NCBI GenBank assembly: GCA_963844965.1
Contig: CAWJQC010000004.1
Span: 128,001-192,000 of the forward strand
Origin: an uncultured bacterium
Lineage (GTDB): Bacteria; Patescibacteriota; Minisyncoccia; UBA6257; 2-01-FULL-56-20
Reading direction: 5' to 3'
Length of the DNA stretch: 64,000 bases
The notes beneath the pieces were generated by a model. The model ran no database searches. It had not been told where the DNA came from and saw only the letters and a list, made by a program, of their open reading frames with translations. The translations under genes were made by a program, and so were the position numbers. Below are positions 5,094-44,817 of this stretch, one piece after another (the first letter of the stretch is position 1; every line of letters begins with the position of its first letter).

Positions 5094-5132
5094 TATATGT
5101 TTTATTCTATTTTCTAAATTCTAAATCCTTTA

Positions 5133-5524: not shown

Positions 5525-5569
5525 TCTTAGATTCTATTTTCTATTTTCCATTTTCTAGTTACGGCGCTA

Positions 5570-7873: not shown

Positions 7874-7907
<34 letters not shown>

Positions 7908-7954
7908 TTATGTTTTTATTCTATTTTCTATTCTCTAAATTCTAGATTCTTTAT

Positions 7955-25100: not shown

Positions 25101-25670
25101 GGAAAGTGGGGTCGTGAAAACCGCGGTAGGCAGTAATCCTGCCGCAGCGGCCGTTGTTGAGGGCACGGAAACGAAGCCGGGAACCGTAAAGGTCTGCCCC
25201 GGAAACGCCGTGCCGTCCACGACCGTGCCGCTCGCATTCACAATCGCCTTGCAGACGCTTATAGACCCCGTCGTTGGCGCGGGAGGAACGAAGGTATCGG
25301 TGATGACGCAGGTCTTCGCGTCTTTTCTTTCCATCGTTCCCGAACAGTCAGCGGAAAAACCAGCAGTGTAATCCGAACTTGAAGCCTGACTAACGTGGTA
25401 CGTTCCGGTTCCCATTGAGACCAAGGTTCCGGAAGCGGAACCCTGGAACGTTGACGGAGAAGGATTGTCGCCGGAAACCATCACTGTAAAATCGGAGGCG
25501 GATTTGGTGCCGCCACCGGTGTTCACGACGTTCACGACAACTGTAAGCTTGGCGCAAGAATCAGAATCCTCGCCGCAACTGCATGCATATGTTTTTGTCG
25601 CCGCGAGGATCGCCGACCAGAGAAGAATTCCAGTAATAATCAGACCTGTAATCGCAATCTTTCTTTTCAT
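22146..25670 (-). CDS. giant surface protein (1174 aa): signal peptide, two DUF11-type repeat domains, poly-Gly linker, C-terminal peptidoglycan-binding domain
   Basis: The unit ADVTSTVEGGTVHYTLTVTALGPSTSTGVVATDTLPSGLTFLNATS...NTASVGENSSTTDPN occurs twice; CGGGGGGGGGGG run; C-terminal LQEFLNQNLGINLPVTGYYGSLTYNAVIQFQ matches the PG_binding_1 signature. Confidence 0.8.
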   Translation of the reverse strand: MKRKIAITGLIITGILLWSAILAATKTYACSCGEDSDSCAKLTVVVNVVNTGGGTKSASDFTVMVSGDNPSPSTFQGSASGTLVSMGTGTYHVSQASSSDYTAGFSADCSGTMERKDAKTCVITDTFVPPAPTTGSISVCKAIVNASGTVVDGTAFPGQTFTVPGFVSVPSTTAAAAGLLPTAVFTTPLSANAELFGASAANAQCVTYNNLALGHYYYGEERIASSSYNWAMPLYNDQDTVTANATSDFFSYSGQLFDNDPTNDGLRNTNADGDIYLEASRPTRQLIVLNRFLGAISTSTPTSTIPSADISIAKVADVTSTVEGGTVHYTLTVTALGPSTSTGVVATDTLPSGLTFLNATSSNSEGSYVSSTGSWMIGDMPVSSTATLAIAAVVNATGTITNTASVGENSSTTDPNTTNNNATSSITATPAPAATCSDVIVSDATNMVNGSSAALVATPYDSRWTASIPGATWIWATPYVTDPAHNQTFTFTKDFMVTGGPLAAHLDIAADNSYDAALNGTDVALNSGEFNYFLENEGHVDALSAVHQGVNHLALTVTNFGLASSTAQSNPAGLLYKLTVTEAGSSCGAPVPTPTSTIPSADISIAKVADVTSTVEGGTVHYTLTVTALGPSTSTGVVATDTLPSGLTFLNATSSNSEGSYVSSTGSWMIGDMPVSSTATLAIAAVVNATGTITNTASVGENSSTTDPNLGNNSSDATVLVGTGGSPALNTTSTLSVSVSGLNASDTATITVLDSTASATQSTSTGNGTGLFVLPTNDLYGVTAASSNYVVATSSGCAGTLSASTTCSVTFTPTAIANNTADVAITKTVDNANPKGGDTITYTLTATDLGSVTSTYVVVNDILPIGLSVNSITSSQGTSSMGATIGWSVGTISPNATATLVISVTVLPQTAGTTLTNTATIKELDSLVDDPANNSSSVSIAVQAAPCTSNCGGGGGGGGGGGSTVLGGGGGSAYSISIDSGAPSTATTSVTLSLYGTGAYTMELSNTPDFAGATWEPYVTTKPWVIGSTQGTETVYVKYRSVTNTDIGTADDSIQLLGGQTGGQVLGASVSCGMYLRDYIKLGANNDPSEVKKLQEFLNQNLGINLPVTGYYGSLTYNAVIQFQLKYNIKVLEPWVPHGLKSNTIATGYVYKTTRWWINMLMCPSLNLQIPQLP
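23548..23894. repeat. ~347-bp direct repeat inside the giant surface-protein gene (copy 1)
   Basis: Near-identical to 24427-24774; encodes the duplicated DUF11 repeat. Confidence 0.85.
24427..24774. repeat. ~347-bp direct repeat inside the giant surface-protein gene (copy 2)
   Basis: Near-identical to 23548-23894. Confidence 0.85.
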
Positions 25671-30191: not shown

Positions 30192-30977
30192 TTAAAGCTG
30201 ATATTTTCGCTTAAACCTTTTTATCGCCTCTCTAGCGCCAGGCAAAGCTGTGGTGTTGTACAACTTACTTAGGTTGTCAAGAAAACTCGGACCAAATGAT
30301 TCCTCAAATAATTTAACAACGTCCTGGTTTTCAAGCGTCTCCCCGTTCAATAAAGCCTGCACCAATGCCTCCCAACACACGCGCTCGCTCTGCTGATTCT
30401 TAGTTGCCAACCTCTTTACCATGGCATTGACTAAAGAAACTTCTAGGTTATAGGAAAATCCTTGATCGCTTGCGACTGCCGTTTTGTATGCACTTACCCG
30501 ATCCTCGGGCCATCTTGATCGCTCTGCGTAAGCCACGGTGATTTCCCTGGAGAGCTTTTCCACTACGCCCTCGTTAAGCGCATCGAACAAGCAGCCGAAA
30601 TTACTGTTGCGGTATATGCTGCTGACTCGGCCCGACCTTCGGAAGTTGATGCCTTCTTCGCCCAACTTTCGAAACAGGCCGGATTGTTTATAGTCTACGT
30701 ATTCTTCGGTTCTTCGATCTGGGTGTTCGTAGGTATTCCACATACAGATATTTCGACTTACTGCATGCGTTTCCTCGTGTGCCAGCACAGCAAGCTGTAT
30801 TAACTCTGCCCCTCCGCATTTTTCAAGTTTCGCTTTTGCTGACTTCCGCCTTTTCGGATCCAAGTCAGAATAATCATCAACACGGCTAAGCACAATGACG
30901 TTGTTTTCCGGATTGTAGCTATGACCTGGACCCGCTATTTTAGACACAAAGGTCGAAACCAAGTACCATTGTGTCAT
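30192..30977 (-). CDS. HExxH-motif putative metallopeptidase-like protein
   Basis: AVLAHEETHAV zinc-binding motif; start trimmed to MTQWYLV because the upstream part of the ORF is antisense to the recombinase. Confidence 0.5.
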   Translation of the reverse strand: MTQWYLVSTFVSKIAGPGHSYNPENNVIVLSRVDDYSDLDPKRRKSAKAKLEKCGGAELIQLAVLAHEETHAVSRNICMWNTYEHPDRRTEEYVDYKQSGLFRKLGEEGINFRRSGRVSSIYRNSNFGCLFDALNEGVVEKLSREITVAYAERSRWPEDRVSAYKTAVASDQGFSYNLEVSLVNAMVKRLATKNQQSERVCWEALVQALLNGETLENQDVVKLFEESFGPSFLDNLSKLYNTTALPGAREAIKRFKRKYQL

Positions 30978-32394
30978 GACTAACAAAAAGGGGCATCGTA
31001 TCCCCATGCTCCGCCGCATTGAGCGGGGCGAGGCGCAGGGTATCATCTGTTGGAAACTAGATCGAGTGGCACGCAATATGCAGGACGGCGGAAAGACCAT
31101 TGAACTCCTTAAACAAGGAGTGATCCAACATATTCGTGCCTTCGCAAGCAGTTACTATCCGCAAGACAACGTGCTCCTCATGTGCATAGAGTTCGGCATA
31201 GCTGACCAATATGTTCGCGATTTAAGTGCTAACACTTCGCGCGGATTGAGATACAAAGCAAGCTTGGGTATCTACCCCGGCCTCGCCCCGTTCGGATATA
31301 TAAACGATCCACAGACCAAGACCGTTATCGTAAACCGCAAGAACGCAAAGCTCGTCAAAAAAACTTTTGAGATTTACGCGACGGGCAAAGTCCGCCTTGA
31401 AAATCTTGCCGATCTTTGGGAGAAGGCGGGCGTCATGTCTAAAGGCAACCGTCGCGTCCATATTTCAAGAATGTCTTTCATTCTGCAAAATCCTTTCTAC
31501 TACGGACACTTTCGTTATTGCGGCGAGATACACGAAGGCAAGCATGAGCCAATCATTACGAAAGACCTCTACGATAAAGCGAACGCTGTCCTGCGAAGCC
31601 GAGGCCGTGTGCCGGACATTAAGAACGACCCAAGCCCTTACTGCGGCCTCCTGCGGTGCGGCGAGTGCGGTATGGGTATTACGGCCGAGGACAAGACAAA
31701 GCACCAAAAGAACGGCAACGTCCACCACTACGTTTATTACCGTTGTACCCGCAAATCGAAGACGCACAAGTGCCACGAAGCACCCGTGCGGAGCGAGATA
31801 CTGGATCGGCAGTTGTCGGCTCTTATCGCCGACTACGCCATGCCCAAAGAGTGGGTAGCCCCTTTGTCGGCTATGCTCGACCAAGAGGCCATAAACGCCA
31901 AACAGACGGCGTCGGTGGCCGTTCAAGAGTTGCGGGAGCAGGTGCAAGACCTTACCCGCGACCTCGCCAGACTTACCGATGTCTATGTTGCACAAGACAT
32001 AGAGCGAGATGACTACCTTGAGAGGCGTCGTTCGCTCATGTCGGAAAAGAAGTCCGTCGAGGAGCAAATAGCCCGTCTTGAACGAACCCCCTCCGCGTGG
32101 ATTGAACCTGCCCGAAGTTGGATTCGGGACGCTTCAATACTGGACGAAACAGCAAAAAACTTCGACCTCCCCTCCAAAAAACTCTCCCTCCAAAAAATCT
32201 TCGGATTGAACCTCTTTCTTAAAAACCGTCGTATCGAATTTAACCCCATCAAACCTTACGCTTCGCTCCGCGAAGCGCGCGTAAATTTTTCTGAAACTGA
32301 CTTACCTTTGAAACTGGAGCGGGTAACGGGAATCGAACCCGTGTGTCAACCTTGGCTCCGTCACCATAAGAAGGACTGCTTGCTTTTTCCGTGA
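30976..32394 (+). pseudogene. large serine recombinase lacking the N-terminal catalytic-serine segment (truncated paralog of the 43135 gene)
   Basis: Aligns to the intact paralog from GEAQGIICWKLDRVARN onward (zinc ribbon CGECGM..YYRCTRKSK, coiled coil, C-terminal ERVTGIEP); no YARKST.D..Q active-site region upstream; the 3' end is a degenerate tRNA-3'-half-like sequence. Confidence 0.7.
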
Positions 32395-32720
32395 GTGTAT
32401 TTACAACACCGCTTGGACTTATTTTAACAAAAAACTCTGACTTTGGCGAGGCCGGAAGGGGTCGTTGAGGGGGTCGTTCCAGAACGACTACCTTTTGAAT
32501 TGAAAATACTCGGCGAGCACTGGCTTCTCTGCCTCTCGCGGAGTTTTTTCTTACCCCCGACAATACCTCCTTTGAGGAGGTTGAAGGTTGCCCCTTCGCC
32601 CCTCGCCTGCTGGCTCGGGGCTCGGGGCTTATATTGTTGTGGGCTGGATGCGCTAATTTTCCTCGGCTCCGCTCTCCTTGGCCGAGTTGAAAAACACGAA
32701 CCGCAGTTGATGCGCGCGGG
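32395..32720. repeat. ~330-bp element, left inverted-repeat copy (IR-L), starting at the recombinase stop codon
   Basis: Reverse complement matches 37650-37995 at roughly 85% identity (e.g. cccccgacaatacctcc / ggaggtattgtcggggg). Confidence 0.8.
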
Positions 32721-32800
32721 TGGGAGAGAAACTTTGAGCCAAGGAGGAGCGGAGGCCTCGGAAAATCGGCCTCTTACTGATATAATGAATATATAATGCT

Positions 32801-33673
32801 ATGCCGAAACATACCAGCAAAAAATTTGTCAGAAGCCCAGACAATGGCGGCCGATTGCGCATCCAGCCCAGCGACGTCGCGCTCCTCCGCGATTTGTCGG
32901 AATATCGTTTCCTGAACACCGAGCAGGTTTTGGCCCTGCACCACCGAGGTTTGCGCAACCTCCAACGCCGCTTGCACGATTTGTACCACGCGGGGTATCT
33001 TGAACGCCCTCCCCAGCAGAACATCTCCGCTCTGCCGAAAGGTCATATCGTTTACGGCTTGGGGGCGAAGGGTGCGGAGCTTCTTTATGAAAATCGGGAG
33101 GAGCGCGCCGAAAAACTCCGGCAAGTGAAGCTGAACCGCGAGACAACGTTTCCCTACATCGCCCACGCTTTGATGATTTCCCAGTTCCGCGCGGCCTTGA
33201 CACTGGCGGCGGAAAAAACCGGAGGGAAGATGAAAGTTGCGAGATGGCGACAGGGCTTTGAATTGAAAAACTATTTGAAGCTCCGCGGCGGAACTCCCGA
33301 ACTCATGCCGGACGCGTTTTTCGCGATTGAACAGGGCGACAGACGCTGGAACTTGTTTTTGGAAACCGACCGCTCCACGATGACACTTGACCGGTTTTTG
33401 GTAAAGCTCAAAACATACTGGAAATGGTGGTGGGAGGAAAAATACAAAGAACAGCTCGGCATCTCGCACTTCCGCGTGCTTACCATAACCATTTCCGAAG
33501 AACGGAAGGAGAACCTTCTCCGCGTCGCCAAAAACGCCGACCCGAGAAGGCAAGGGAGCAACATGTTTTTGTTTATTTCCGAAAAAGAGTTTTCGCTGAA
33601 GAAGCCGGAGGCGGTGTTGTCTCCGGTGTGGCTTTCGCCGAGAGACGGATTGAAACATTCGTTTCTTGAATAA
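32801..33673 (+). CDS. replication-relaxation family protein (plasmid/ICE-type)
   Basis: 290 aa; N-terminal wHTH (LLRDLSEYRFLNTEQVLAL) and core PDAFFAIEQGDRRWNLFLETDRSTMTLDRFLVKLKTYWKWW typical of that family. Confidence 0.7.
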   Translation: MPKHTSKKFVRSPDNGGRLRIQPSDVALLRDLSEYRFLNTEQVLALHHRGLRNLQRRLHDLYHAGYLERPPQQNISALPKGHIVYGLGAKGAELLYENREERAEKLRQVKLNRETTFPYIAHALMISQFRAALTLAAEKTGGKMKVARWRQGFELKNYLKLRGGTPELMPDAFFAIEQGDRRWNLFLETDRSTMTLDRFLVKLKTYWKWWWEEKYKEQLGISHFRVLTITISEERKENLLRVAKNADPRRQGSNMFLFISEKEFSLKKPEAVLSPVWLSPRDGLKHSFLE

Positions 33674-33733
33674 ATTAGCGGCGGCCACGAGGTCGAAGCG
33701 GCCGCCAGTTTTTTAAAAAGTTCCCTATACTTT

Positions 33734-34492
33734 ATGCCGCATACGCCGACGACAACGACAATAATCGTGGGCGCGCTCATGGTCATCGCCACCGCGCTTT
33801 TTTGCGTCGCGGCTTATTTTGTCATCAAATACGCGCTCCGCTTCGTCGGAAAAATGTTCAGCTTCGTAAACGAGGTGGCAAACATCGTCAGGGAAAGGAA
33901 AGACCGGTATCTTGTTGGGCCGGTTTGGGGATGGGACATACAAGACCGGATAGAAGAATGGGACAAGCCGGACGAGGAGTGGTCGGTTATGGTCGAAGGA
34001 GCGGCGGGATACGGCGAAGAATTTTTGGAGCGCGTCGCTCGCCGCGCGCTTGACGAAAACATTCCCCGGCTTGTGGTGAGAAAGCGGATTGTCTGGCCGT
34101 ATCTGCGCCGAAAATGGCAACCGGTTCTTGTGATAACCAACAAGAAAATAAAGGGCTATCAAATGCTGATTGACGCGACAGACTACACCGACCGCCTTGA
34201 TGTTTGGTGGCGAGTTGATAAAGGCGACCGCGACCAACTGCCCTTGAGAGGGGCGGAAATACGGGAAAAGAGATTCGGGCTCGATTCGTCGGGCGTTCTT
34301 GAAGCCCAAGCCCAACAAGAGAAAAACTGGGTATTTCCCGAACAGATGACCGCTCTCGACAAGCAGGAGTGGGACAACTGCACTGGTTTGGTGCGCGATA
34401 TTGTCAGAGCCGAGGTAAAACGGATGGCGGACGAAGTTCGTATCGGCGGCGGCGTGGCTGGCGGCGCGAAGGGATTTATTGACATCAACTAA
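33734..34492 (+). CDS. membrane-anchored hypothetical protein, 14-nt overlap with the downstream T4CP-like ATPase
   Basis: N-terminal TM helix IIVGALMVIATALFCVAAYFVI; translationally coupled to the next gene. Confidence 0.55.
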   Translation: MPHTPTTTTIIVGALMVIATALFCVAAYFVIKYALRFVGKMFSFVNEVANIVRERKDRYLVGPVWGWDIQDRIEEWDKPDEEWSVMVEGAAGYGEEFLERVARRALDENIPRLVVRKRIVWPYLRRKWQPVLVITNKKIKGYQMLIDATDYTDRLDVWWRVDKGDRDQLPLRGAEIREKRFGLDSSGVLEAQAQQEKNWVFPEQMTALDKQEWDNCTGLVRDIVRAEVKRMADEVRIGGGVAGGAKGFIDIN

Positions 34493-36071
34493 CTATGAAA
34501 AACGGATTTTTAAAAACAATTTTGGACTGGATACTGGACTGGCGTTATCCGCTCCCGCCCCCGCCGGAGCCGGACTTGCCTCTTTTTCCGAGCAGTCGGA
34601 GGAACCGATGGCGGACAAATTCAAACTGCCGAGGCCCAACGAGCTTGTTCTCGGCAGTACGACAACCAAAGGGCCGGACGGCAAGGCAGAAGGCAAGACA
34701 AAGGGCGTGTCGCAGGACGACCGCTCGACCCATTTTTACGTGGTGGGAGCGACCGGCACGGGCAAGACGAAATTTTTGGAAACCCTAATCTTGCAGGACG
34801 CGATGAACGCGCACGGCTTTGGCATCGTGGACGCGCAGGGCGATTTGACGGAAGACATCAAGAGCTATCTTTTCATTCTTACCTTCCCAAACGAACCGGA
34901 GGAAACCGCCGAATTTGAAAAAGATTCGGAAAAAGCCCTCAAAAAAATTAAAAGATTTTTGAGCGAACGCGTCGTGCTGATAGACCCGTCCGACAGGGAA
35001 AGAACTGTTTGCTTTAATCCGCTTGAAAAAGTGGAGGGGCTTTCGCCCGCCGGAATCGCGAGCGAAGCAGTGGAGGCGTTCAAGAAAATCTGGCATGACG
35101 CTTGGGGCGCGAGAATGGAAGACCTGCTCAAAAATTCTCTGATAGCCCTCGTCGAGAACGACCTCACCCTCGCCGAACTTCCCCTGTTTCTTTCCGACAT
35201 CGGGGCGAGAAAAAAGATTCTGAAAAAAGTCATCCATCCCGTCTGCCGCCAGTATTTTGAAAAGTTCAATTCTTTGAGGTCGTCGTTGCAGGACGAGTGG
35301 GCGGAATCAACTCTGAACAAGGCCCGCGCCTTCATGTCCAACGACCACGTGCGGCAGATGCTCTCGGCGGTTAAAAGCACTTTCAACTTCCGCGACATAA
35401 TGGACGACCGGAAAATTCTGCTGGTGAAGCTGAATCGCGGAAAATTGAAGGGCGACGCCGACCTGCTCGGCTCTTTGCTTCTCTCCAAAATCCAGATGGC
35501 CGCCTTTTCTCGGACGGACGTTCCGCAATCCGAACGCGTGCCGTTTTATCTTTACATCGATGAGTTTCAGAATTTTGCGACCGAGAGTTTTATCCAAACG
35601 CTCGCCGAAGCGAGAAAGTATGGCCTGTCGATTACGCTGGCTCATCAGAATCTCGCCCAGCTACCGCCGTCCCTGCGGGCGTCGATACTCTCCAACTGCG
35701 GCTTGCAGGCGTACTTCCGCATCTCGCGCGACGACGCGAACATGCTAGCTAGGGAATCTCTCGCTTCCGTTTACGAAGAGCCGCCCGGCTGGGAGTTTTA
35801 CGTCCGCTCGCTTCAAGAACTGCCGAGGCGCGAGTGCGTGATAAAACATAAAATCGCGGGAGGCGTGATTGCCGTCCACACCATCGGACTGCCTACCCCT
35901 TGGGAATGGGCGAAGATGGACGAAAAGAAATTCTCGGAGGGACTGGCCGCGATGAATACCGGCGGCGCGTACATGCGCAAGCGCGAGGACATAGAGAAAG
36001 AATATCGGTCGAGGCAAGAGGCCCTCCGATTTATGGACGAGCCGGAGAGTTTCTGGGAGCGGAAGGTTTAA
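34479..36071 (+). CDS. VirD4/TraG/TraD-like type IV coupling-protein-type ATPase (soluble domain only)
   Basis: Walker A VVGATGTGKTKF; Walker B YLYIDEFQNFATE; ARKYGLSITLAHQNLAQL motif characteristic of T4CP/TraD-like ATPases. Confidence 0.65.
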   Translation: MTSTNYEKRIFKNNFGLDTGLALSAPAPAGAGLASFSEQSEEPMADKFKLPRPNELVLGSTTTKGPDGKAEGKTKGVSQDDRSTHFYVVGATGTGKTKFLETLILQDAMNAHGFGIVDAQGDLTEDIKSYLFILTFPNEPEETAEFEKDSEKALKKIKRFLSERVVLIDPSDRERTVCFNPLEKVEGLSPAGIASEAVEAFKKIWHDAWGARMEDLLKNSLIALVENDLTLAELPLFLSDIGARKKILKKVIHPVCRQYFEKFNSLRSSLQDEWAESTLNKARAFMSNDHVRQMLSAVKSTFNFRDIMDDRKILLVKLNRGKLKGDADLLGSLLLSKIQMAAFSRTDVPQSERVPFYLYIDEFQNFATESFIQTLAEARKYGLSITLAHQNLAQLPPSLRASILSNCGLQAYFRISRDDANMLARESLASVYEEPPGWEFYVRSLQELPRRECVIKHKIAGGVIAVHTIGLPTPWEWAKMDEKKFSEGLAAMNTGGAYMRKREDIEKEYRSRQEALRFMDEPESFWERKV

Positions 36072-36081
36072 CCGCGCCTAT

Positions 36082-36111
36082 TTGACAAACCGGACTTGAA
36101 AATGGTATCTT
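36082..36111 (+). promoter_or_regulatory. candidate sigma-70 promoter
   Basis: TTGACA (36082-36087), 18-nt spacer, TATCTT (36106-36111). Confidence 0.3.
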
Positions 36112-36267
36112 CTCCCCAGTTTCATTACCCCCGCCGTCCGCGCTAAAGCGGTGCGGCGGGAAAGCGGAACGCGAGGGAGATCGCGCTCTCGCCCGTTCCC
36201 TTGGATGGCTCCTCCTCGAACCGCCGAGAAGAAGGAATGAAACTTTTTCATAATAAAGAGTACAATA

Positions 36268-36300
36268 AAAGGACGTCACGGGACGTCCTTTTATTTTTTT
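36268..36300 (+). terminator. rho-independent terminator
   Basis: aaaggacgtc-acgg-gacgtcctt followed by ttattttttt. Confidence 0.5.
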
Positions 36301-36354
36301 GAACTGGAACATCTCGCAACCGAAATAGAGCCGCTCGGCAAAACCACCTTCCAC

Positions 36355-37597
36355 GAGAAGGGCGTTTTATTCGGCATCAGGCCCAAAGACCGCCGCCATC
36401 ATATGTACGTTATCGGGCAGACCGGCACCGGCAAGTCCACGCTCTTGAAGAATATGGTGATACAGGACTTGCGGTTCGGCCACGGGGTGCGCGGTCATTG
36501 ATCCCCACGGCGAACTGGTGGAAGACATTTTGAACTTCGTGCCGCGCTCGCCGCACGAACGAGGTCGTGTATTTCAATCCGGCGGACACGGAAAACCCCA
36601 TCGGCTTGAATATCCTTGAAGCCCGCGACGAGAACGAAAAACAGCTCGTCGCTTCGTCGCTCATCTCGGTATTCAAGCATTTGTGGAAAGGGTTTTGGGG
36701 TCCGCGGCTTGAGCACGTTTTCCATAACGCCATACTTGCTTTGATGGACACGCCGGGCAGTACCTTGCTCGGCATTTACCGGATGCTCGCGGACGACGAA
36801 TACCGGCAGCAAGTCGTCGGCGCAGGTCAAAGACCCCGTCGTGAGATTGTTTTGGAAGGAGGATTTTGAGAAGTATCCGCCGCAACTTCAAAAAAGAAGT
36901 CGCCTCGCCGATTCAGAACAAAATCGGCCAGCTTCTCACGAGCACGCCCTTGCGAAACATCGTCGGCCAGTCCCGGAGCACGATTGATCTGCGCTTCATT
37001 ATGGACAACCAGAGAATTTTCCTTGTGAACCTCGCCAAAGGCACGGATCGGCGAGGACAAGGCAAATCTGCTCGGCTCGGTGCTCGTTACGAAGCTGTAC
37101 CTTGCCGCGCTTGAACGGCAGGACATGCCGGAGGAGGAACGCAAGGATTTTTATCTGTACATTGACGAGTTTCAGAACTTCTCCACGGACGTTTTCCCGT
37201 CTATCTTGTCGGAAGCCAGAAAATATCGGCTTGAACCTCATTCTCGCCCATCAATATCTTATATCAGCTTTCGGAGAGCGTGAAGCACTCGGTTTTCGGC
37301 AACGTCGGCACGCTCGCGTCTTTTCGCGTCGGAAGCATCGACGCGCGCGAACTGGCCGAGGAGTTCAGCCCGACTTTCACCAAAGAAGACCTGGAACACA
37401 CCGAAAACTATCACGCCTACCTCAAGCTGATGATAGACGGGAAGCGATCCACTCCTTTTTCCGCCGAAACGCTCCCGCCTCTCGCCCATCAGGGCGACGA
37501 GGCGCAGAAAGAAACGCTCATTAGAGTTTCACGGGAGCGTTTCGCGTCAAAGCGAGAGGACATGACGGAGAAAATCGAAAAATGGTTTTCAAAGTAA
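36355..37597 (+). pseudogene. degenerate T4CP-like ATPase paralog with at least five frame disruptions
   Basis: Consecutive frames give MYVIGQTGTGKSTLLKNMVIQDL / VYFNPADTENPIGLNILEARDE..FWGPRLEHV / KEVASPIQNKIGQLLTS..DLRFIMDNQRIFLVNLAKG / DFYLYIDEFQNFSTDVFPSILSEARKY / SVFGNVGTLASFRVGSIDAREL..; collinear with the 34479 gene. Confidence 0.7.
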
Positions 37598-37649
37598 ACC
37601 ATTTTTCATGTTTTTTTTCCTCGGCCTTGCGGCCTGAGCGGATTTTCTT

Positions 37650-37995
37650 TTTTTGTTTTCCTTCCCACCCGCGCGTAGAATACGATTCGGTTTTTTCAAC
37701 TCGGCCAAGGAGAGCGGAGCCGAGGAAATACGCTAGAGACAGCCCAGCATACAATAGTAAGTCCCGAGCCCCGAGCAGCAGCGAGGGGCGAAGGGGCAAA
37801 CCTTCACCCTCCCAAAAGGAGGTATTGTCGGGGGTGTCGAAAGGTCCGAGGCGGAGCGAAGAAGCCAATATCAGCGGAGTAATTTCAATTCACGGGGTAG
37901 TCGTTCTGGAACGACCCCCTCAACGACTCCTTCGGGCCTCGCCAAAGTCAGAGATTTTGGTTAAAATAAGTCCAAGCGGTGTTGTAAATACACTC
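37650..37995. repeat. ~330-bp element, right inverted-repeat copy (IR-R)
   Basis: Reverse complement of IR-L; outer end ...gtaaatacactcc abuts the recombinase-3'-end duplicate. Confidence 0.8.
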
Positions 37996-38140
37996 CATAA
38001 CACAACTTAAAGGTTTTTTATTCACCGAACAATGGGCTTCCACAATGGAAGCCCATTGTTTTTCCGCAAAACCGCGCGCTTCGCGCGCGTGGAGTGTCAG
38101 GTTCAATCCGAAAATTTTTTGAGCGAACGATTTTTTGAGG
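37996..38140 (-). repeat. near-identical duplicate of the last ~140 nt of the 43135 recombinase gene (att-like junction with IR-R)
   Basis: Reverse complement matches 44515-44650, then switches at gttatg|gag into IR sequence instead of tRNA-Gly. Confidence 0.75.
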
Positions 38141-38244
38141 GGTAAGGGGGTCGCAGATAAAGATATAATGCTTGCCCCGCCCTTCCCGTGCGCGCATTAT
38201 GTATTTTTGCCGATTTTGAAATCGGCAACTCCCTTATAACGATT

Positions 38245-40950
38245 TTACCTTTTCAGACCATATTTCTGTTCTCGTTTCTGGAAAGCTTCTGTGCCGCCCT
38301 CAAGAACGTCATAGATTGTCTTCCGCATCTCTATATTCTCTAACGAACCTTGTAGGGCATTAACCTTACTTTTATCATCAACGGATAAAGCAGTTATCAA
38401 TTCTGAATCGCCCAAGACAACGATATTGGCGTTATGGGTGCAAATAATTATCTGCCTGTTCACTTTTTGCTCTCTAACCAAAGTTACTACCTTCTCTGCT
38501 ACGAATTTTGCGTCAAGGTGATCCTCCGGCTGGTCAATGATAAGTGGATGGTCGCCAGACAACAATATAAGTTCCACCAAAGTGCCGCATCGCTCGCCGA
38601 ACGACATACTATCTTTGCCGAGTATTTTAGTTCCATATTTAATGTGATTTTCTCCGGTTTCCGCATATTCATCTAGCCGCATTATTAGGTCTTCTCTAAT
38701 AATTTGAGTATTCGGGTCTTCAAAAAACCACCGCAGAGTTTCTGTCTTTCCGCTACTATCTTGTAATTTTGGTATTCTATTTTCTTTAATAGTGGAAATT
38801 ATCTTTTCCCTTGCGACATCACCAGTAGCTTTGCCGACAAGTTCGTTTATTACATCTTTAACGTAATCCTCTCTGACGGGAGATTTTATCTTAAAATTCT
38901 TTTCAATGACACCCTTTAACTCGTCGTTTGATTGGAGGAACTGCTCCTTTATCCACGGAGCAATATCACCACTTGGATCGTCCCATACGGCAGTGATTGT
39001 TGTATCCTTAAAAGATTCGTTGAACCCGCCAATAAGTTTTTGGTTTTCCTTTATCCAGAGTTTTAGTTTTGCCGCCAGTTGATTCACGAGTTGGCTGTGT
39101 TGTTTCTTATCGCCTTCAAACTTTTTTAGGCGATTTTCAAGTTGCGATGATTGCTGGTCAATAAACTTAATTCTGTTGTTTCGCTTTTCTACCTCACTCT
39201 TTGTTATAGTAACGCCGTTTAGCTTACAGTAATCGGTAAACTGCTTTGTAAGTTCTGCGCTTTCTCTATCCAGTTCTTTTTTTACATCGGATTCTCTTAC
39301 TTCCTTTACTGCTCCTTCTAAATTCTTAACTACGGAATCCAGTTGAGATTCTTTTAGGTTATAAAAATCTTCAATTTTTTTCTTTAGCGCATTTTTCTCC
39401 GCAAAAAGTTCTAAAACTTTATCTTTATCAACAGTAGTAGAAAGTTTAAGTTGCCCTGCGAATTTTTTAATGAGGACGGCTTGGGCTTCAATATCTTGGA
39501 TCAAGCCATCAATCAACTGGCGTTTGGCTCTATTGCTTTTAATTTTTTCGGCAAGGTCTTTATATTCTTTTGTTTTTAACTTCTTAAAGTAAGATTCAAT
39601 TTGTTCTCGTTCCGCTTCAAGTTTCTTTTTGTCTATTTCTACTTGGAGTTTATCGGCGTAACTGTTACGGGTAGTTTCCATTTCTACAGCCAACGCCTCT
39701 ATTTCCTCTTTTGTCTTAATGAGTAGATCGGAATGAAGACGGCCTCCTATGTAATCCGCTATCTGTTTTGGGCTATCGGCTTTTTTCTCAATTTCTCCTT
39801 GTGTCCAGTATTCAACTTGAAAGGACGAAGTATAAAATGGGTCATTCCACTCTTTGACTTGACGCTTTAGAGATACTGGGTCTTCTGCTCCACTTTGAAA
39901 GATAACCTCAACTTCAAGATTGGGGAACTCCCTACTCAAAAATTCAATTAAGGAAAGTTTTTTGTCGCCTTTATCGGATGAAAACTTGTTAGCTACATAT
40001 CCAATCAATTCTGCTAAAGCGGTCTTTCCGGCGGCTCGTGGCCCGATAACCGTGGTTAAATTCGGACTAAAAAACAGTTCTTGATTTAGAGTAATTGGTG
40101 GAAATATACTTCTCTTTGATTGATAACTTTGATGATTTAGCAATTTTGCGGATACAATCTGCGGATGAAGATAAAGTGGCGGACTATCATCAAGACAAAC
40201 TCTAATAACTGGCTCATAAATAATTTGTTTCAAACCTTCAAATGTTGGATCGGCCTTAATCCAACTATACTTCTTACCAATTACTTCCGTTGAGTGGCCG
40301 CTTTTGTATTGAAGTTTTGATCTATCGCAAGCGTCGGAAGTAATAATACACGGAAACTCCTGTTTAATCTTTGGGAACACTATTTTTCTGTAATCCTCAA
40401 CCTGTTTTATGGCCGATACTTCAAAAATATCAACCAAAAACGCTAAATCTTTTTTTAGTGTCGCACGGACATCACTATCCAATTGTTCTATCCCGTTGGA
40501 CTTGTTACCCGCGTGGAGTAAAACAAGCCCGTCTAACTCGTGTATTTTTTGACACGCGTCTTCAAAGTTACAGTAAATCTCCTTATCCCCCTTACCCTTA
40601 ATATCGTTTTCCGAAAAATTAAGAGGGCAGAGTAATTTATCGTAAATAGTTTTTGAAGTAGTGGAAGAATCAAAAACTCCGATAATATGTATCCCTTTAT
40701 TGCCCTTATCGGTGCGCAGTTCAACGCCGGGGAGAATTGTTATATCTTTTCCTTTAGCAGCTTTTAGAACCTCGTCAATTCCTTTAACGGTATGGTGGTC
40801 TGTAATAGCAATAACAGATATATTTTCTGTTATTGCCTTTTTCACTATGTCTTCCGCTTTGTCTTTACAGCCACTATCCCAATCATAAGAAGACGGGGTA
40901 TGAACGTGCAAATCCCACTTTCTCCAAATTGAACCGCGGGGTGAATTCAT
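38245..40950 (-). CDS. PHP-domain phosphoesterase fused to an SMC/SbcC-like ABC ATPase with a long coiled-coil insert (901 aa)
   Basis: PHP motifs WDLHVHTPSSYD and VIAITDHH; Walker A GPRAAGKT; ~350-aa coiled coil; signature-like MSFGERCGTLVELIL; Walker B LIIDQPEDHLD; H-loop IICTHNANI; start codon 6 nt after the MTase stop. Confidence 0.75.
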   Translation of the reverse strand: MNSPRGSIWRKWDLHVHTPSSYDWDSGCKDKAEDIVKKAITENISVIAITDHHTVKGIDEVLKAAKGKDITILPGVELRTDKGNKGIHIIGVFDSSTTSKTIYDKLLCPLNFSENDIKGKGDKEIYCNFEDACQKIHELDGLVLLHAGNKSNGIEQLDSDVRATLKKDLAFLVDIFEVSAIKQVEDYRKIVFPKIKQEFPCIITSDACDRSKLQYKSGHSTEVIGKKYSWIKADPTFEGLKQIIYEPVIRVCLDDSPPLYLHPQIVSAKLLNHQSYQSKRSIFPPITLNQELFFSPNLTTVIGPRAAGKTALAELIGYVANKFSSDKGDKKLSLIEFLSREFPNLEVEVIFQSGAEDPVSLKRQVKEWNDPFYTSSFQVEYWTQGEIEKKADSPKQIADYIGGRLHSDLLIKTKEEIEALAVEMETTRNSYADKLQVEIDKKKLEAEREQIESYFKKLKTKEYKDLAEKIKSNRAKRQLIDGLIQDIEAQAVLIKKFAGQLKLSTTVDKDKVLELFAEKNALKKKIEDFYNLKESQLDSVVKNLEGAVKEVRESDVKKELDRESAELTKQFTDYCKLNGVTITKSEVEKRNNRIKFIDQQSSQLENRLKKFEGDKKQHSQLVNQLAAKLKLWIKENQKLIGGFNESFKDTTITAVWDDPSGDIAPWIKEQFLQSNDELKGVIEKNFKIKSPVREDYVKDVINELVGKATGDVAREKIISTIKENRIPKLQDSSGKTETLRWFFEDPNTQIIREDLIMRLDEYAETGENHIKYGTKILGKDSMSFGERCGTLVELILLSGDHPLIIDQPEDHLDAKFVAEKVVTLVREQKVNRQIIICTHNANIVVLGDSELITALSVDDKSKVNALQGSLENIEMRKTIYDVLEGGTEAFQKREQKYGLKR

Positions 40951-40956
40951 AAATTA

Positions 40957-42072
40957 TTACCTTTGTTTCAAAAACTCGTACTCAATCTTTGAAAATAAAT
41001 TACTGGGTAAGTTAGACAATCTTTTTTTAGCAACCTTGATGGCCTGTTCTGATTTATCAATACCAATCCAATGTCGGCCAAGCTCTTGGGCGGCAACGAG
41101 GGTTGTCCCAGAGCCGCAAAAACAATCAAGAACTAAATCGTCTTTATTTGACGAAGCTTCAATAATAAACTTTAACAAGTCCAAACTTTTTTCTGTTGGA
41201 TAATTGGGATACTGCGGGTCTTTAAATTCCCAAATATCCTGCATTTTCTTCCCTGTTCTCTCATCGAGGAAAATTTTTTTGCGTGGTACTCCGCTTGCCG
41301 ACCATTCAATAAGTCCTTGCTTATCCCATTCTTCTAAAATAGCCGGATTAGTTCGCCAATGGCGTCCTTTTGGTGGTTTTTGCCCTCGCCACTCCTTACT
41401 TGTATTCCCGTTTGATGTTTCTCCGGGTGCGTGGAGTGGGATTGTTGTATATCGCCGTCCGTCTTTATCAACTTTCTTAAACAAGCGATCCTCGTCTTCC
41501 TCGGAGAATGAAACGTGTGGATCATTCCAAATCGGGTTTTCTGATTTGGAGTAAAAAAGTATCAAATCCTTGATATTGCCGTAGGCCTTACGATGAAAAT
41601 TTTTCGGGTTACACTTAATGCGAGTAATATCGTTACGAAAACTTTTGCGACCAAAAACTTCATCCATTATAAGTTTCACATAGTGGCCGATTTTATAATC
41701 AATGTGAAGGTAAATTGACCCACGCTCGGATAGAAGTTCGCGCAAAAAAATCAGGCGTTCGCGTAGAAATTCTAAAAATTCCGCACCAATTAACGTATCG
41801 CTATATGCAATCTCATCGCTATTGCTACTACTGATTGTATTGGCACGCCCCTCGCTTATTTTGAAATGGCCATTGGTTGCAAATGGTGGATCAATATAAA
41901 TCAAATCAACCTTACCCCCATAATTATCAAGTAACGTTTTGAGAGTGGAAAGATTATCGCCATGAACAAGTTTATTTTTTGCCCCTTTGCCGGAAAGCAC
42001 TTTCAAGTTAGCTCTTGGAGTGCTTTCAAGAATTTCACGCTCACCCTTTTTGCTTTCATAACTAAGAAGCAT
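40957..42072 (-). CDS. beta-class DNA methyltransferase (N6-adenine or N4-cytosine)
   Basis: Motif IV LIYIDPPF precedes motif I VLDCFCGSGTT (beta-class order). Confidence 0.8.
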   Translation of the reverse strand: MLLSYESKKGEREILESTPRANLKVLSGKGAKNKLVHGDNLSTLKTLLDNYGGKVDLIYIDPPFATNGHFKISEGRANTISSSNSDEIAYSDTLIGAEFLEFLRERLIFLRELLSERGSIYLHIDYKIGHYVKLIMDEVFGRKSFRNDITRIKCNPKNFHRKAYGNIKDLILFYSKSENPIWNDPHVSFSEEDEDRLFKKVDKDGRRYTTIPLHAPGETSNGNTSKEWRGQKPPKGRHWRTNPAILEEWDKQGLIEWSASGVPRKKIFLDERTGKKMQDIWEFKDPQYPNYPTEKSLDLLKFIIEASSNKDDLVLDCFCGSGTTLVAAQELGRHWIGIDKSEQAIKVAKKRLSNLPSNLFSKIEYEFLKQR

Positions 42073-42078
42073 ATAAAA

Positions 42079-42861
42079 TTATATTTGATATAAGAATTCG
42101 CGCAGGACGAGTGCGCTCATAATATTCTCGTCCTTTAACTCGCCAGCGACCGCTTTATACATTTTGTTGTTGCCCTTGATATAAAGTACCCCATCTAAAA
42201 TGGCCACCTTAACCGCTTTAACACCCTTCGCTTTGATAGTGGCGATTGCGTCGTTAAATTGAGCATTTTGATGACCCCCAAAATCGGTTAAAAATTTTGC
42301 CTCTCCAATAACATACTTCCCGTTAAAACGCCCTATCAAATCAAGTCCTTTGTTATGATTGTAGTTCAAGTATTTTTTAGCAAAGGCCATCGTTTCCGCA
42401 TCTCCCGCATCAAGAACTGCGTTTCCTTTTGCCACTAAAAATTCCGACATCTTCAGCGGTTGCACTCCGAGAGTTTTTCTATTCAGCCAGCGGCGGAAAA
42501 GTGGGCCAATTTGTCGGTTTGTTTCTTTTGGCTCTGATGAACGAGAGAAAATTTGCTTAAGACCCATCTCATACAATCGGCCACATAGACGAGCAACCGT
42601 CGCCGGATTGCGCTTTAATGCTTCTTTGTCGCGCTTAAGATAAGCAATGTAGGAATCTTTAATAGGAAATAAATCAAGCTTCAAAAGATTTTCAAGAAGC
42701 GCAACATTGTTCCTTTTTTCAAACGCCTGTTCTACGTTTTTCCAAAGCGCCTTGTTAATGTCGCGAATTCCCTCTGGAATTGTTGGATATACTTGAAACA
42801 AATCATCGAGGTAGCTTCGCTGATTTGCGTAATCAATACTTAATTTTGTCCAATGGTTCAT
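42079..42861 (-). CDS. putative type II restriction endonuclease (PD-(D/E)xK-like)
   Basis: 260 aa between the C-protein and MTase genes; GLDLIGRFNGKYVIGEAKF fits a D...E-x-K motif; no other recognisable motifs. Confidence 0.55.
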   Translation of the reverse strand: MNHWTKLSIDYANQRSYLDDLFQVYPTIPEGIRDINKALWKNVEQAFEKRNNVALLENLLKLDLFPIKDSYIAYLKRDKEALKRNPATVARLCGRLYEMGLKQIFSRSSEPKETNRQIGPLFRRWLNRKTLGVQPLKMSEFLVAKGNAVLDAGDAETMAFAKKYLNYNHNKGLDLIGRFNGKYVIGEAKFLTDFGGHQNAQFNDAIATIKAKGVKAVKVAILDGVLYIKGNNKMYKAVAGELKDENIMSALVLREFLYQI

Positions 42862-42865
42862 GGTT

Positions 42866-43078
42866 TTATTTTATTAAGTCATCAACTGCGACATTTAGGG
42901 CTTTGGCTATTTTCGCCAAAGTTTCTATTGTCGGATTCTTATTAACACCCGATTCAATTTTAATCATGGTGTTATAGGTAACATCCGCCAATTTGGACAA
43001 ACGATCTTGTGAAATGCCGAGTTTACTACGGTATTTTTTGATATTCTCGGCAATCCTTGATTTGTTGCTTGCTCCCAT
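42866..43078 (-). CDS. XRE-family HTH controller (C) protein of the R-M operon
   Basis: 70 aa; KKYRSKLGISQDRLSKLADVTYNTMIKIESGVNKNPTIETLAKIAKAL; first gene of the operon, 4 nt before the REase. Confidence 0.7.
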   Translation of the reverse strand: MGASNKSRIAENIKKYRSKLGISQDRLSKLADVTYNTMIKIESGVNKNPTIETLAKIAKALNVAVDDLIK

Positions 43079-43134
43079 AGTAATATAGTAGTATGATTGA
43101 ACTAATAGCGAGTGATTTTGTTTAATCTATTACT
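43079..43134. promoter_or_regulatory. divergent control region between the C-protein gene and the recombinase gene; contains inverted repeats (candidate C-box)
   Basis: ccatagtaata...tattactatgg 11-bp inverted repeat spanning the 56-bp intergenic region. Confidence 0.35.
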
Positions 43135-44739
43135 ATGGTATCAAAAAATACACCGCACGTAAATACCTATTTTCTCTACGCCCGCAAATCCACCGACGTT
43201 GAAGACAAGCAAGTCCGGTCTATTGAGGACCAGCTTGCCGTATTGCGGGCGTTGGCCAAAGGCGAAGGACTAACTATCGCCAGAGAGTTTATTGAGCGGC
43301 AATCGGCCAAGAAGCCGGGCCGCCCCGCTTTTAACGAAATGCTCGCCTTGATTGAAAAAGGCGAAGCGCAAGGAATCCTCTGTTGGAAACTTGACCGCTT
43401 GGCTCGCAATCCGGTTGATAGCGGCCGCATATCTTGGCTCTTACAGCAGGGCGTTATCCGGCACATCCAAACGCACGACCGAAGCTTTTATCCTACGGAC
43501 AATGTTTTGATGACGAGCGTAGAGTTCGGGATGGCGAACCAGTTTATCCTTGATTTGAAAGTGAACACCAAACGCGGCCTTGACGCCAAAGCCAAGCGCG
43601 GCGACTATCCGGGCCATGCTCCCATCGGCTACATCAACGACACCCGCGTAAAGCTCGTGGCCGTTGATAAAAGGAAATCCAAAATTATCAGGCGCGCGTT
43701 TGAACTCTACGCCGAGGGCAACTGGCGTTTGGAAGACGCCGCCAAATTCCTTTTGGAGAACGGTATTAAAACGAAAGGCGACAAACCCTTGTCGCGCGAC
43801 CGAATCTCTTATCTCTTGACCAATCCTTTTTATTACGGCAATTTCCGCTACAACGGGGAACTTTACGAAGGCAATCACGAGCCGATAATTACGAAGCAAC
43901 TTTTTGACAAAGTTCAGGCGGCGTTGAAAGCGCGAAGCAAGCCGCCCTCAAGTCCCGCCAATCACCCGCAAGCTCTTTGCGGGGCTATCCGGTGCGGCAC
44001 TTGCGGCATGATGATAACCGCCGAGCGTAAGATAAAACACCAGAAAAACGGCAATGTCCACGAATACACTTATTATCGTTGTACCCGCAAGAACAAAGCG
44101 ATCCGGTGCTCCGAGCCGCCTATCCGCGAGGACGCGCTTAATCGGCAGTTATCGAACCTTATCAAAAAGTATGCTTTGCCGGACGATTGGGCGGCGGAGC
44201 TATTAAAAATGTCCGAGCGGGACGAACAGGAAGCCGCCCAATCAACGACCGCCCTCGTCCGAGAGGCGCGGGACGAGATACAGGCCATTTCTCAAAAACT
44301 CCAACGCCTTCTTGACGCATATCTTGACCAAGATATTGAGCGGGAAAGCTACCGCTTCGAGAAGGCAAACCTTCTCTCCCGCAAGAAGTCGTTGGAGGAG
44401 AAAATCGGCAATTTGGAGCAAGGGGCGATTGCTTGGGTTGAACCCCTGCGCGATTGGATAAAAGACGCTCAAACGCTGAACGAAATGACGGAAACGACCC
44501 CCTTACCCCTCAAAAAATCGTTCGCTCAAAAAATTTTCGGATTGAACCTGACACTCCACGCGCGCGAAGCGCGCGGTTTTGCGGAAAAACAATGGGCTTC
44601 CATTGTGGAAGCCCATTGTTCGGTGAATAAAAAACCTTTAAGTTGTGTTATGGAGCGGGCGAAGGGAATCGAACCCTCGTCTATAGCTTGGGAAGCTATC
44701 GTACTGCCACTGTACTACGCCCGCAAGATAGCCCACTAA
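43135..44739 (+). CDS. large serine recombinase (integrase), intact; 3' end overlaps tRNA-Gly in antisense
   Basis: 534 aa; catalytic N-domain YARKSTDVEDKQVRSIEDQ, recombinase domain, zinc ribbon CGTCGM..YYRCTRKNK, coiled coil; last ~30 codons are antisense to tRNA-Gly. Confidence 0.85.
   Translation: MVSKNTPHVNTYFLYARKSTDVEDKQVRSIEDQLAVLRALAKGEGLTIAREFIERQSAKKPGRPAFNEMLALIEKGEAQGILCWKLDRLARNPVDSGRISWLLQQGVIRHIQTHDRSFYPTDNVLMTSVEFGMANQFILDLKVNTKRGLDAKAKRGDYPGHAPIGYINDTRVKLVAVDKRKSKIIRRAFELYAEGNWRLEDAAKFLLENGIKTKGDKPLSRDRISYLLTNPFYYGNFRYNGELYEGNHEPIITKQLFDKVQAALKARSKPPSSPANHPQALCGAIRCGTCGMMITAERKIKHQKNGNVHEYTYYRCTRKNKAIRCSEPPIREDALNRQLSNLIKKYALPDDWAAELLKMSERDEQEAAQSTTALVREARDEIQAISQKLQRLLDAYLDQDIERESYRFEKANLLSRKKSLEEKIGNLEQGAIAWVEPLRDWIKDAQTLNEMTETTPLPLKKSFAQKIFGLNLTLHAREARGFAEKQWASIVEAHCSVNKKPLSCVMERAKGIEPSSIAWEAIVLPLYYARKIAH
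44651..44724 (-). tRNA. tRNA-Gly (anticodon CCC)
   Basis: 74 nt: GCGGGCG-TA-GTAC-AGTGGCA-GTAC-G-ATAGC-TTCCCAA-GCTAT-AGAC-GAGGG-TTCGATT-CCCTT-CGCCCGC-T-CCA; perfect acceptor stem; CCA encoded. Confidence 0.85.
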
Positions 44740-44751
44740 GTCCTTCTTTGG

Positions 44752-44817
44752 TGCGGGGCTTGGGAAGGTCTCGCCTGCATACCGGCAGGCAGGTTCTGCC
44801 ACTGAACCATACCCGCG
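44752..44817 (-). other. tRNA-like remnant: 5' half with a Tyr-like GTA anticodon arm joined to a degenerate 3' end
   Basis: GCGGGTA-TG-GTTC-AGTGGCA-GAAC-..CCTGC-CGGTATG-GCAGG then only 15 nt (no T-arm) before GCCCCGC-ACCA; cannot fold a complete cloverleaf. Confidence 0.4.

Follow-up and report, generated by a model that had tools for sequence, protein, structure and literature searches.

Organisation of the locus

The DNA analysed here, referred to throughout as the window, is a stretch of 64,000 nt from an uncultured member of the Patescibacteriota (contig CAWJQC010000004.1 of assembly GCA_963844965.1). It contains an intact gene for a large serine recombinase of 534 aa (recB; 43135-44739, plus strand), a truncated relative of this gene (recA; 31006-32319, plus strand, a label distinct from the recombination protein RecA), two groups of cargo genes and a series of repeats. 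The only tRNA detected by ARAGORN in the window, a tRNA-Gly(CCC) on the minus strand (44651-44724), is found wholly inside recB in the antisense orientation, the last 28 codons of the recombinase being read through from the tRNA gene; this had already been noted in an earlier interpretation made from the letters of the DNA (the sequence-only reading), which regarded the region as two integrative elements inserted in tandem at one tRNA gene. The evidence set out below instead makes it very likely that a single integrative element of 12,260 bp, probably mobilisable, is present, belonging to a Patescibacteria-wide family that targets the 3' ends of tRNA genes and has its attachment site, attP, inside the recombinase gene.

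Comparison of the window with itself, as had been proposed, recovered two pairs of inverted repeats. In the first, the 3' end of recB (44495-44655; termed the P arm) recurs on the opposite strand at 38153-37993, the two 161 nt copies being 100% identical reverse complements; the sequence-only reading had seen this duplication, although as 140 nt of near-identical sequence. The second pair, termed X, comprises 339 nt sequences at 32393-32731 and 37657-37995, which are 83.6% identical. The repeats meet each other and their surroundings at three junctions, and alignment of these defines a common AG dinucleotide: at 32394-32395 a chromosomal spacer is joined to X (...ttccgtg-AG-tgtattt), at 37994-37993 on the minus strand P is joined to X (...gttatgg-AG-tgtattt; this junction is termed J2), and at 44654-44655 P is joined to the tRNA (...gttatgg-AG-cgggcg). 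The common switch point previously described at 37995 and at the tRNA 3' end is therefore real, but as the identity of the P copies extends through gttatgGAG, it lies after the AG and not before the gag. The AG corresponds to positions 72-73 of the tRNA, in antisense, and the outermost junctions, considered below as attL and attR, have only 2-3 nt, (g)AG, in common.

An occupied site can be compared with an empty one thanks to L087, a related metagenome contig with around 85% identity at the empty site, which encodes a recombinase 80% identical to RecB and carries the window's chromosomal locus on its minus strand. Read along that strand, a P arm and an AG are followed by the same tRNA-Gly 3' remnant as is found in the window, the same 22-nt repeat, the spacer gcttgcttcttccgtg, AG and a tRNA-Gly(CCC), then the partner 20-nt repeat and the 5' part of the remnant tRNA-Gly. 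The spacer, homologous to window positions 32378-32393, is here directly joined to the tRNA gene (...TTCCGTG-AG-CG...), as it would have been in the window before insertion, which supplies the comparison with an island-free genome that the sequence-only reading had called for. When 32396-44655 is deleted from the window in silico, the remainder is collinear with L087 across the junction. On the strength of this empty site and of the collinear alignment, we can state with high confidence, from sequence comparison, that 32396-44655 represents one 12,260-bp insertion between the spacer and the tRNA-Gly(CCC), and hence that both cargo modules, both X copies, the spare P arm and recB belong together; the proposed division of the cargo between two elements does not hold. 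An exact 24-mer search of metagenomes for the predicted empty site found no match. Exact-protein look-ups of RecB, an ABC-3 permease and one open reading frame (ORF) of the right flank likewise matched no other contigs, and the window's own strain was not found in other samples.

The element thus delimited consists of two segments, each bordered by inverted repeats. The X-bounded segment carries genes for a putative relaxase and a coupling protein, and the P-bounded segment those for a helix-turn-helix (HTH) protein, the recombinase and the defence cargo. X-left (32396-32731, plus strand) combines the P' half-site of attP with a lineage-specific repeat body, and matches the profile of the X motif with an E value of 4e-8; X-right is the inverted copy (37657-37992, minus strand), and the adjoining spare P arm (37993-38153, minus strand), which includes the AG core at 37994-37993, forms J2 with it.

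A conserved layout in Patescibacteria

Homologues of RecB are numerous, with 4282 found at E<1e-30 in a database search; more than 500 relatives are present in species-representative genomes, nearly all of them labelled Patescibacteria or Candidate Phyla Radiation (CPR), and more than 560 in metagenomes. We fetched 164 Patescibacteria loci (given as L numbers), and the counts that follow are of recombinase copies in these loci and the window. An antisense tRNA or tmRNA abuts the recombinase 3' end in 108 copies, which encompass 14 tRNA isotypes and tmRNA (Gly 22, Gln 18, Thr 14, Leu 11, Arg 9, Glu 7, Asn 6, Tyr 5, Val 4, Ala 3, Ser 3, Lys 2, and one each of Ile, Asp and tmRNA), bearing out the idea that such recombinases use tRNA-like targets. 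A further nine 3' ends abut X. In a separate, earlier count of right junctions over 161 sources, 27 recombinase 3' ends were found at remnants or unclassified sequence and 23 were cut by the end of the contig.

The typical arrangement begins at the chromosomal flank with a direct X, followed by cargo and then an inverted X joined to an inverted P arm; beyond this, sometimes after more cargo, come an HTH gene and the recombinase, the 3' end of which forms the second P arm and meets the tRNA. The inverted spare P upstream of the recombinase duplicates the last 110-190 nt of that gene, with 86-100% identity in the 47 loci aligned. It has X on its outside in 85 recombinase copies, and some further spare copies have an unclassified flank (around 20 flanks). 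Only 10 copies, each with at least 3 kb of upstream sequence, lack it, such that a spare is found in approximately 90% of informative copies. Its outer flank starts with a constant motif of around 45 nt (TaTCTtTACaAC...GCTCGAACcTATTTTA), which corresponds to the start of the window's X, whilst the outer end of the right P copy always lies 4-5 nt within the annotated 3' end of the tRNA. Past its first 50 nt or so, X is not conserved between loci, although 12 loci have long inverted X pairs of 148-360 nt, mostly 93-100% identical and 2-8 kb apart. In L028 and L068, the left side of the direct X adjoins a 12-nt spacer and then the next tRNA of a cluster, so this X is the true left end of these elements. 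The sequence-only reading was right to describe the 37995 junction as attP-like, the same joining of P to X recurring in relatives, but mistaken in considering it a hybrid between the left of one element and the right of another: as an inverted P joined to X precedes the recombinase in around 90% of informative relatives, whatever the tRNA, it is, by sequence comparison, the ordinary internal junction of the family layout.

Departures from this layout are also found. Simple elements without J2 are present in L025 and L023, and minimal modules of 1.8 kb have only the HTH and recombinase genes. Tandem arrays occur in L113 (1-7909) and L162 (1-13610), in which the P arm of the upstream recombinase is joined, in direct orientation, to the X of the next element; this structure implies that newcomers integrate at the junction of a resident P with the tRNA. 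Several contigs begin or end, or both, exactly in a P arm (L040, L064 and L072), and the 6383-bp contig L007 has P at both ends as perfect inverted termini of 141 nt; P repeats systematically break Patescibacteria assemblies beside tRNA genes.

Attachment sites resembling attP and attB

The core dinucleotide, antisense to tRNA positions 72-73, varies between loci (AG, TG, CT, CG and others), yet within any one locus attL, J2 and attR all share it, and the left junction of the direct X matches attR in 11 loci other than the window. Profiles built outward from the core differ in character. That of P (CCA.aAtaAAAC) is weakly conserved and supplies the CCA of the tRNA gene, while those of X (..TACaAC..GCTCGAACcTATTTTA) and of the tRNA (..GGAaTCGAACC) are stronger, with the result that every junction observed takes the form of a weak left half, either P or chromosomal spacer, joined to a strong right half, either X or tRNA. 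A TCGAAC motif is common to both right halves, at 14-19 nt past the core in the tRNA and 18-23 nt in X, and the best match between the two profiles is at a shift of +4; measured from the centre of the site, the conserved stretch extends from +17 to +32 in X and from +11 to +21 in the tRNA. For comparison, the contacts of the phiC31 zinc-ribbon domain are at positions 17-27 on attP and, on attB, 5 bp nearer the centre. The 4-nt offset of TCGAAC is in line with these footprints.

Given the shared core, the offset of the motif and the form of the junctions, P joined to X can be read as attP, and spacer joined to tRNA as attB, the catalysis itself being deduced from these patterns. For the window, the half-sites of attB would be the spacer at 32378-32393 (the B arm) and, as B', the 3' strand of the acceptor stem together with the T arm of the tRNA-Gly(CCC), whose T-loop motif keeps the same distance from the core in every locus. 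The CCA end of the tRNA and what follows it downstream are contributed by the P arm at attR (core AG at 44654-44655). An Rfam scan of X gave nothing significant.

A degenerate solo copy of X lies at around 590-940 on the minus strand, where the sequence-only reading had placed a third repeat-like copy (556-1000). It has the X motif at 895-928 (minus strand; nhmmer E=2e-4) and a collinear stretch of 83 nt with 72% identity, scoring 35-38 against a maximum of 27 for shuffled sequence; on its core side there is a terminator-like hairpin and not a P arm. This may be a relic of the left end of another element that reaches beyond the window.

The recombinase reading frame spans attP

RecB has an N-terminal catalytic Resolvase domain (PF00239, E=2e-20, residues 13-157) and also matches PF07508 (Recombinase) and PF13408 (Zn_ribbon_recom), and the R-K-S-T-D motif is invariant in an alignment of 89 sequences. 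An AlphaFold model of a homologue with a native tail (P0002; 82% identical to RecB by search, 81% in alignment A1) shows two long helices (342-389 and 395-422) and is confident to around residue 489, with a pLDDT of about 50-60 in the tail, which looks like an appendage past the folded zinc-ribbon domain. At the level of sequence, RecB has all the features expected of a large serine integrase.

Where the recombinase frame runs from P into X, it closes 14-17 codons beyond the core in every one of 46 loci, giving a tail of the form xLY(N/D)xARTYFxxN before the stop, with variation at third codon positions. Frames that run from P into a tRNA, by comparison, have tails of between three and more than 50 residues, which mirror the tRNA. 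In the window the native tail takes the form CIYNTAW-TYF...: the first 42 nt of X-left encode CIYNTAWTYFNKKL (plus strand, stop at 32438-32440), and X-right encodes CIYNTAWTYFNQNL, again ending in a stop. Amongst the best 120 database homologues at least 17 have a native tail and 71 have tRNA-antisense tails. Native tails are found in two settings, namely upstream members of tandem arrays, which have P followed by X in direct orientation (L112, L113, L114 and L162), and the short contigs L026, L066 and L161, which may be free forms. We therefore consider, with high confidence on these comparisons, that the native ORF spans attP, the left arm P being the end of the coding sequence and the right arm X contributing the last 15 or so codons and the stop. 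It follows that integration would swap the last 15 or so residues of the enzyme.

The proposed course of integration is that RecB would recombine the attP of its own gene with the 3' end of the tRNA gene, crossing over at the dinucleotide for tRNA positions 72-73. This would leave spacer joined to X as attL at 32394 and P joined to tRNA as attR at 44654, with the tRNA intact but for having its CCA end supplied by P, and would exchange the native tail of the recombinase for the 28 tRNA-antisense codons.

The spare attachment site and a possible inversion

J2 differs from the other junctions in that its P arm, joined to the second X, is inverted and non-coding. The loss of coding function is evident in relatives, frameshifting indels being found in 25 of 31 non-identical pairs of P arms; the indels of the spare are often a similar insertion of around 10 nt that splits a T-loop-like motif (GGCT|CGAACC), an insertion present in many lineages, though not in the window's spare arm. 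The inner P arm itself (44506-44576, with its copy at 38142-38072) is conserved at the DNA level, across many loci, far above what the divergence of the protein would lead one to expect, and holds two CCTCCAAAAAATC repeats, the T-loop-like TTCGG(C/A)T(C/T)GAACC and a CGCGCGCGAAGCGCGCG hairpin.

As the orientation of J2 is opposite to that of attL and of attR alike, inversions are the only events that it can join. A crossover between J2 and attR would invert 37995-44653, whether effected by the recombinase or by RecA acting on the 161-nt arms, and would rejoin the P arm of recB to X-right, restoring the native tail, while bringing the spare P to the tRNA and so keeping the end of the tRNA intact. 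Three relatives appear in just such a flipped state, with the spare P beside the tRNA and the recombinase facing away: in L106 a tRNA-Leu adjoins the spare P, recognised by its insertion, in L027 a tRNA-Thr does, and in L087 the spare P adjoins a tRNA remnant. Our best guess, held with low to moderate confidence, is that the spare site serves the inversion of the recombinase module. Going further, the element could be a self-contained toggle between integration and excision that needs no separate directionality factor, the tail being swapped on integration and the native enzyme regained by the flip, with no damage to the tRNA, and with the enzyme recognising the universal T arm and acceptor end of tRNAs such that only the 2-bp core (positions 72-73) sets the choice of site; this fuller scheme is speculative, and we regard it as doubtful.

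A number of points weigh against the interpretation as a whole. Flipped states are rare, at three against about 80 copies in the orientation seen in the window. Under the phiC31 model an attP and attR pair should not synapse, hence inversion between J2 and attR by the recombinase would be unorthodox, although RecA could act instead. The low-confidence AlphaFold tail lends no support to a functional effect of the tail swap, and the conservation of X could reflect DNA binding more than coding, or the reverse. The window's X arms are 83.6% identical, compared with 93-100% elsewhere, and the X-bounded module may have a mixed history. Finally, the excision, integration and inversion of the window's element are all read from sequence.

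Alternative explanations

The spare P joined to X might have no function, having arisen incidentally through inverted duplication or gene conversion and been carried along with the element. Frameshifts do build up in spare P arms, and the simple elements of L025 and L023 do without a spare. Nevertheless, the spare is kept in around 90% of copies across recombinases that are only 52-87% identical to one another, its outer end is always exactly at the core, the adjoining X tails keep frame and stop in all 46 loci, and the similar 10-nt insertion recurs in the spare arms of many lineages. Such an absence of function seems unlikely to us.

It is also rather improbable that the P-bounded segment (37993-44655) is an independent transposon resembling an insertion sequence (IS), with 161-bp terminal inverted repeats (TIRs) and a serine transposase, that inserted between an older X-bounded element and the tRNA. 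Its perfect terminal repeats would fit this description, as would the 1.8-kb versions with HTH and recombinase genes only, the P segments that have X on both sides (L112-L114), the occurrence of P segments in both orientations, and the near-identical P arm that L087 carries at a different tRNA copy. Yet outside the spare P one finds X, in 85 copies, or else a tRNA, where the element is flipped, and never ordinary chromosome, leaving aside the 20 or so unclassified flanks. The conserved native ORF running from P into X shows that X goes with the recombinase, a circle joining P to an inverted P would lack the left-and-right half-site form common to every observed junction, the P ends show no duplication of the target, and L087 indicates that X-left and the direct P arrived together. 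A version of this idea in which an IS with 161-bp terminal repeats has a palindromic AT core was considered and rejected, the conserved X always lying outside the left repeat with the ORF continuing into it.

The model of the sequence-only reading, in which one element with restriction-modification and PHP-ATPase genes and another with Replic_Relax and coupling protein genes and a truncated recombinase stand in tandem at one tRNA-Gly, with 37995 as their hybrid, has some circumstantial appeal: two recombinase genes with 49% identity are present 11 kb apart, the X arms are more diverged (83.6% identity) than the P arms (100%), and arrays are known in the family (L113 and L162). We nonetheless judge it highly improbable, as the empty site of L087 places both modules in one insertion between spacer and tRNA-Gly, made by the intact recombinase; recA ends at a tRNA remnant of its own, 76 nt before X-left; the inverted P joined to X accompanies around 90% of informative relatives, over 14 tRNA isotypes and tmRNA; and in real arrays the recombinase runs into P and X in direct, not inverted, orientation. 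That the 161-nt duplicate is a collapsed or chimeric repeat produced by assembly, which had been named as a possible refutation and is suggested by the many related contigs that break at the P arm (23 recombinase copies cut; P at both ends of L007), can be dismissed, since the layout is found in about 100 independent assemblies, made in different projects and with different assemblers, in which the arms have diverged and bear indels specific to particular lineages.

Gene content of the element

The X-bounded segment (module 1, all plus strand) encodes a Replic_Relax protein (32801-33673), an unknown ORF (33734-34492) and a type IV coupling protein of the TraG/TrwB type (34479-36071), the first and last identified through Pfam; Replic_Relax also directly follows the direct X in L018, L025 and L162. 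Among the ORFs scanned there were no further transfer genes, and the element is a candidate integrative mobilisable element (IME) with a putative relaxase. In the P-bounded segment (module 2, minus strand) lie genes for a TrlF-family PHP/AAA ATPase (38245-40950), a type II N6/N4 methyltransferase (40957-42072), a Tsp45I-type restriction enzyme (42079-42861) and an HTH_3 regulator of 70 aa (42866-43078). The last of these is divergent from recB and has equivalents in more than 60 loci, even in the 1.8-kb minimal modules, making it a candidate regulator or directionality factor. The GC content falls to 0.37-0.42 only across 38-43 kb. No close relative of the element was found in IMG/VR, which argues against its being phage-like.

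Elsewhere in the window, a 1174-aa ORF (22146-25670, minus strand) contains a 350-nt direct repeat (23545-23894 and 24424-24773; 99.7% identical, 879 nt apart), and the heptamer TAGAAAG and its variants form three arrays (5046-5134, 5491-5560 and 7875-7955) between ORFs of at least 150 aa.

An older relative and a split tRNA-Gly

The truncated recA gene, 49% identical to recB, lacks its first 58 or so residues, including the catalytic serine region, as the sequence-only reading had recognised, and its Resolvase match covers profile positions 55-141 only. It had been described as running up to the repeat at 32394, but its homology to recB stops at an AG at 32318-32319, spaced 102 nt from the conserved FGLNL codons as in recB; the ORF at 30976-32394 merely stays open past this point. 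Beyond the AG come the 3' part of an antisense tRNA-Gly(CCC) pseudogene, from anticodon loop to CCA (T_A; 32315-32355, minus strand), which matches the tRNA-Gly of L070 from CCAAGGTTGA to the 3' end and is also present in L087, then the 22-nt terminal repeat of a small insert (32356-32377) and the 16-nt spacer; X-left is therefore not contiguous with recA, 76 nt intervening. Two recombinase-bearing elements do stand side by side, as had been supposed, but recA is what is left, in decayed form, of an older relative, distinct from the first element and located at another tRNA-Gly, which is now split. In place of its missing 5' end lies an unrelated ORF of 261 aa (30192-30977, minus strand; GC content 0.45), which had no match in Pfam, NCBIfam or PADLOC.

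The tRNA-like remnant reported at 44752-44817 is indeed tRNA-derived: 44759-44816 (minus strand) and 32315-32355 are, respectively, the 5' and 3' parts of the split tRNA-Gly. The regions 44752-44817 and 32320-32394 were considered as whole tRNAs and rejected, being the two halves of this one gene. The older tRNA-Gly(CCC) was split in its anticodon loop by a mini-insert of around 145 nt with its own intact tRNA-Gly(CCC), bordered by inverted repeats of around 20-22 nt (CTCCGTCACCATAAGAAGGACT and CCCCGCACCAAAGAAGGACT) and flanked by a 5-bp duplication, CTTGG. Its parts are found in the window at 32351-32377 and 44739-44763, with the tRNA-Gly at 44651-44724 between them once the element is removed, and the whole structure is kept in L087 (770-1000). 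The 5' part of the split gene in the window also has a hairpin-forming insertion of 20 nt (gcctgcataccggcaggcag; 44773-44792), absent from L087.

Significance and comparison with known systems

Serine integrases are prized tools of genome engineering and were once thought to avoid tRNA genes. Mageeney et al. (2020) stated that they were not known to target such genes, and listed 14 candidate cases out of 297 as 'not reported previously' and needing proof; the tycheposon preprint mentions, without detail, a few large serine recombinases among tRNA-associated elements. In a full-text literature search we did not find this family, an integrase-spanning attP or a built-in inverted attP described for serine systems, hence the family appears to be undescribed although very widespread. 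With more than 4,000 database homologues, it seems to use the two terminal base pairs of the acceptor stem as its insertion point in 14 tRNA isotypes and tmRNA, in the reduced genomes of the Patescibacteria, where gene mobility is little known. If this is correct, the target of a whole integrase family is near-universal and predictable, nature provides a case of an attachment site placed within the coding sequence of its own integrase, and an inverted site of stereotyped form, built into the element, may have a regulatory effect on that enzyme. The many Patescibacteria contigs that end beside tRNA genes would also be accounted for, and there would be a possible route by which restriction-modification and other defence genes spread among these bacteria.

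The element departs from classical tRNA-gene islands (Islander type) in having no tyrosine integrase, as there is no Phage_integrase domain and the sole recombinase is the serine enzyme, and no distal direct repeat of some tens of nt from the tRNA 3' segment, the fragment at 32315-32355 coming from the older tRNA copy. It also differs from IS and TIR transposons, as the true left end, X-left, is 5.6 kb beyond the spare P and the P ends have no duplication. With IMEs that use serine integrases it has in common the combination of integrase, relaxase-like and coupling proteins, with no full transfer apparatus among the ORFs scanned, and the defence cargo, while the host phylum, the tRNA target and the double inverted-repeat layout set it apart. 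Tn4451 and Tn5397, mobilised by the large serine recombinases TnpX and TndX, are likewise cargo elements with a presumed circular form and a dinucleotide crossover, but have a fixed GA dinucleotide, non-tRNA targets and short imperfect end repeats, and have neither an ORF-spanning attP nor an internal inverted site.

For an attP located within the integrase gene, the closest parallels are with tyrosine recombinases, those of Mx8 (intP/intX), which integrates at a tRNA gene, and SSV1; in both, integration alters or splits the integrase coding sequence, and elements of this type are not known to have a spare inverted 3' end. Hin and Gin, and the shufflons, also have a recombinase-bearing segment between inverted sites, with both orientations found among relatives. 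Hin and Gin, however, are small serine recombinases with a C-terminal HTH, acting on crossover sites of about 26 bp, as opposed to a 534-aa large serine integrase with Recombinase and Zn-ribbon domains and 161-nt arms whose outer halves differ (X and tRNA), and in the present family the two orientations are those of different relatives rather than of one population.

The closest resemblance in the enzyme itself is to the integrases of phiC31, Bxb1 and A118/LI, which have the same order of Resolvase, Recombinase and Zn-ribbon domains, a long coiled coil and a 2-bp crossover common to all sites; as in phiC31-type systems, the outer motif of the attB-type arm is displaced inwards by some 4-5 bp compared with that of the attP-type arm. 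In contrast to these systems, the Patescibacteria family accepts nearly any tRNA or tmRNA 3' end as its target, has its attP within the integrase ORF with P arms of 110-190 bp rather than about 25 bp, and keeps an inverted spare attP in the integrated element, with the HTH_3 protein as the candidate, so far, for a directionality factor.

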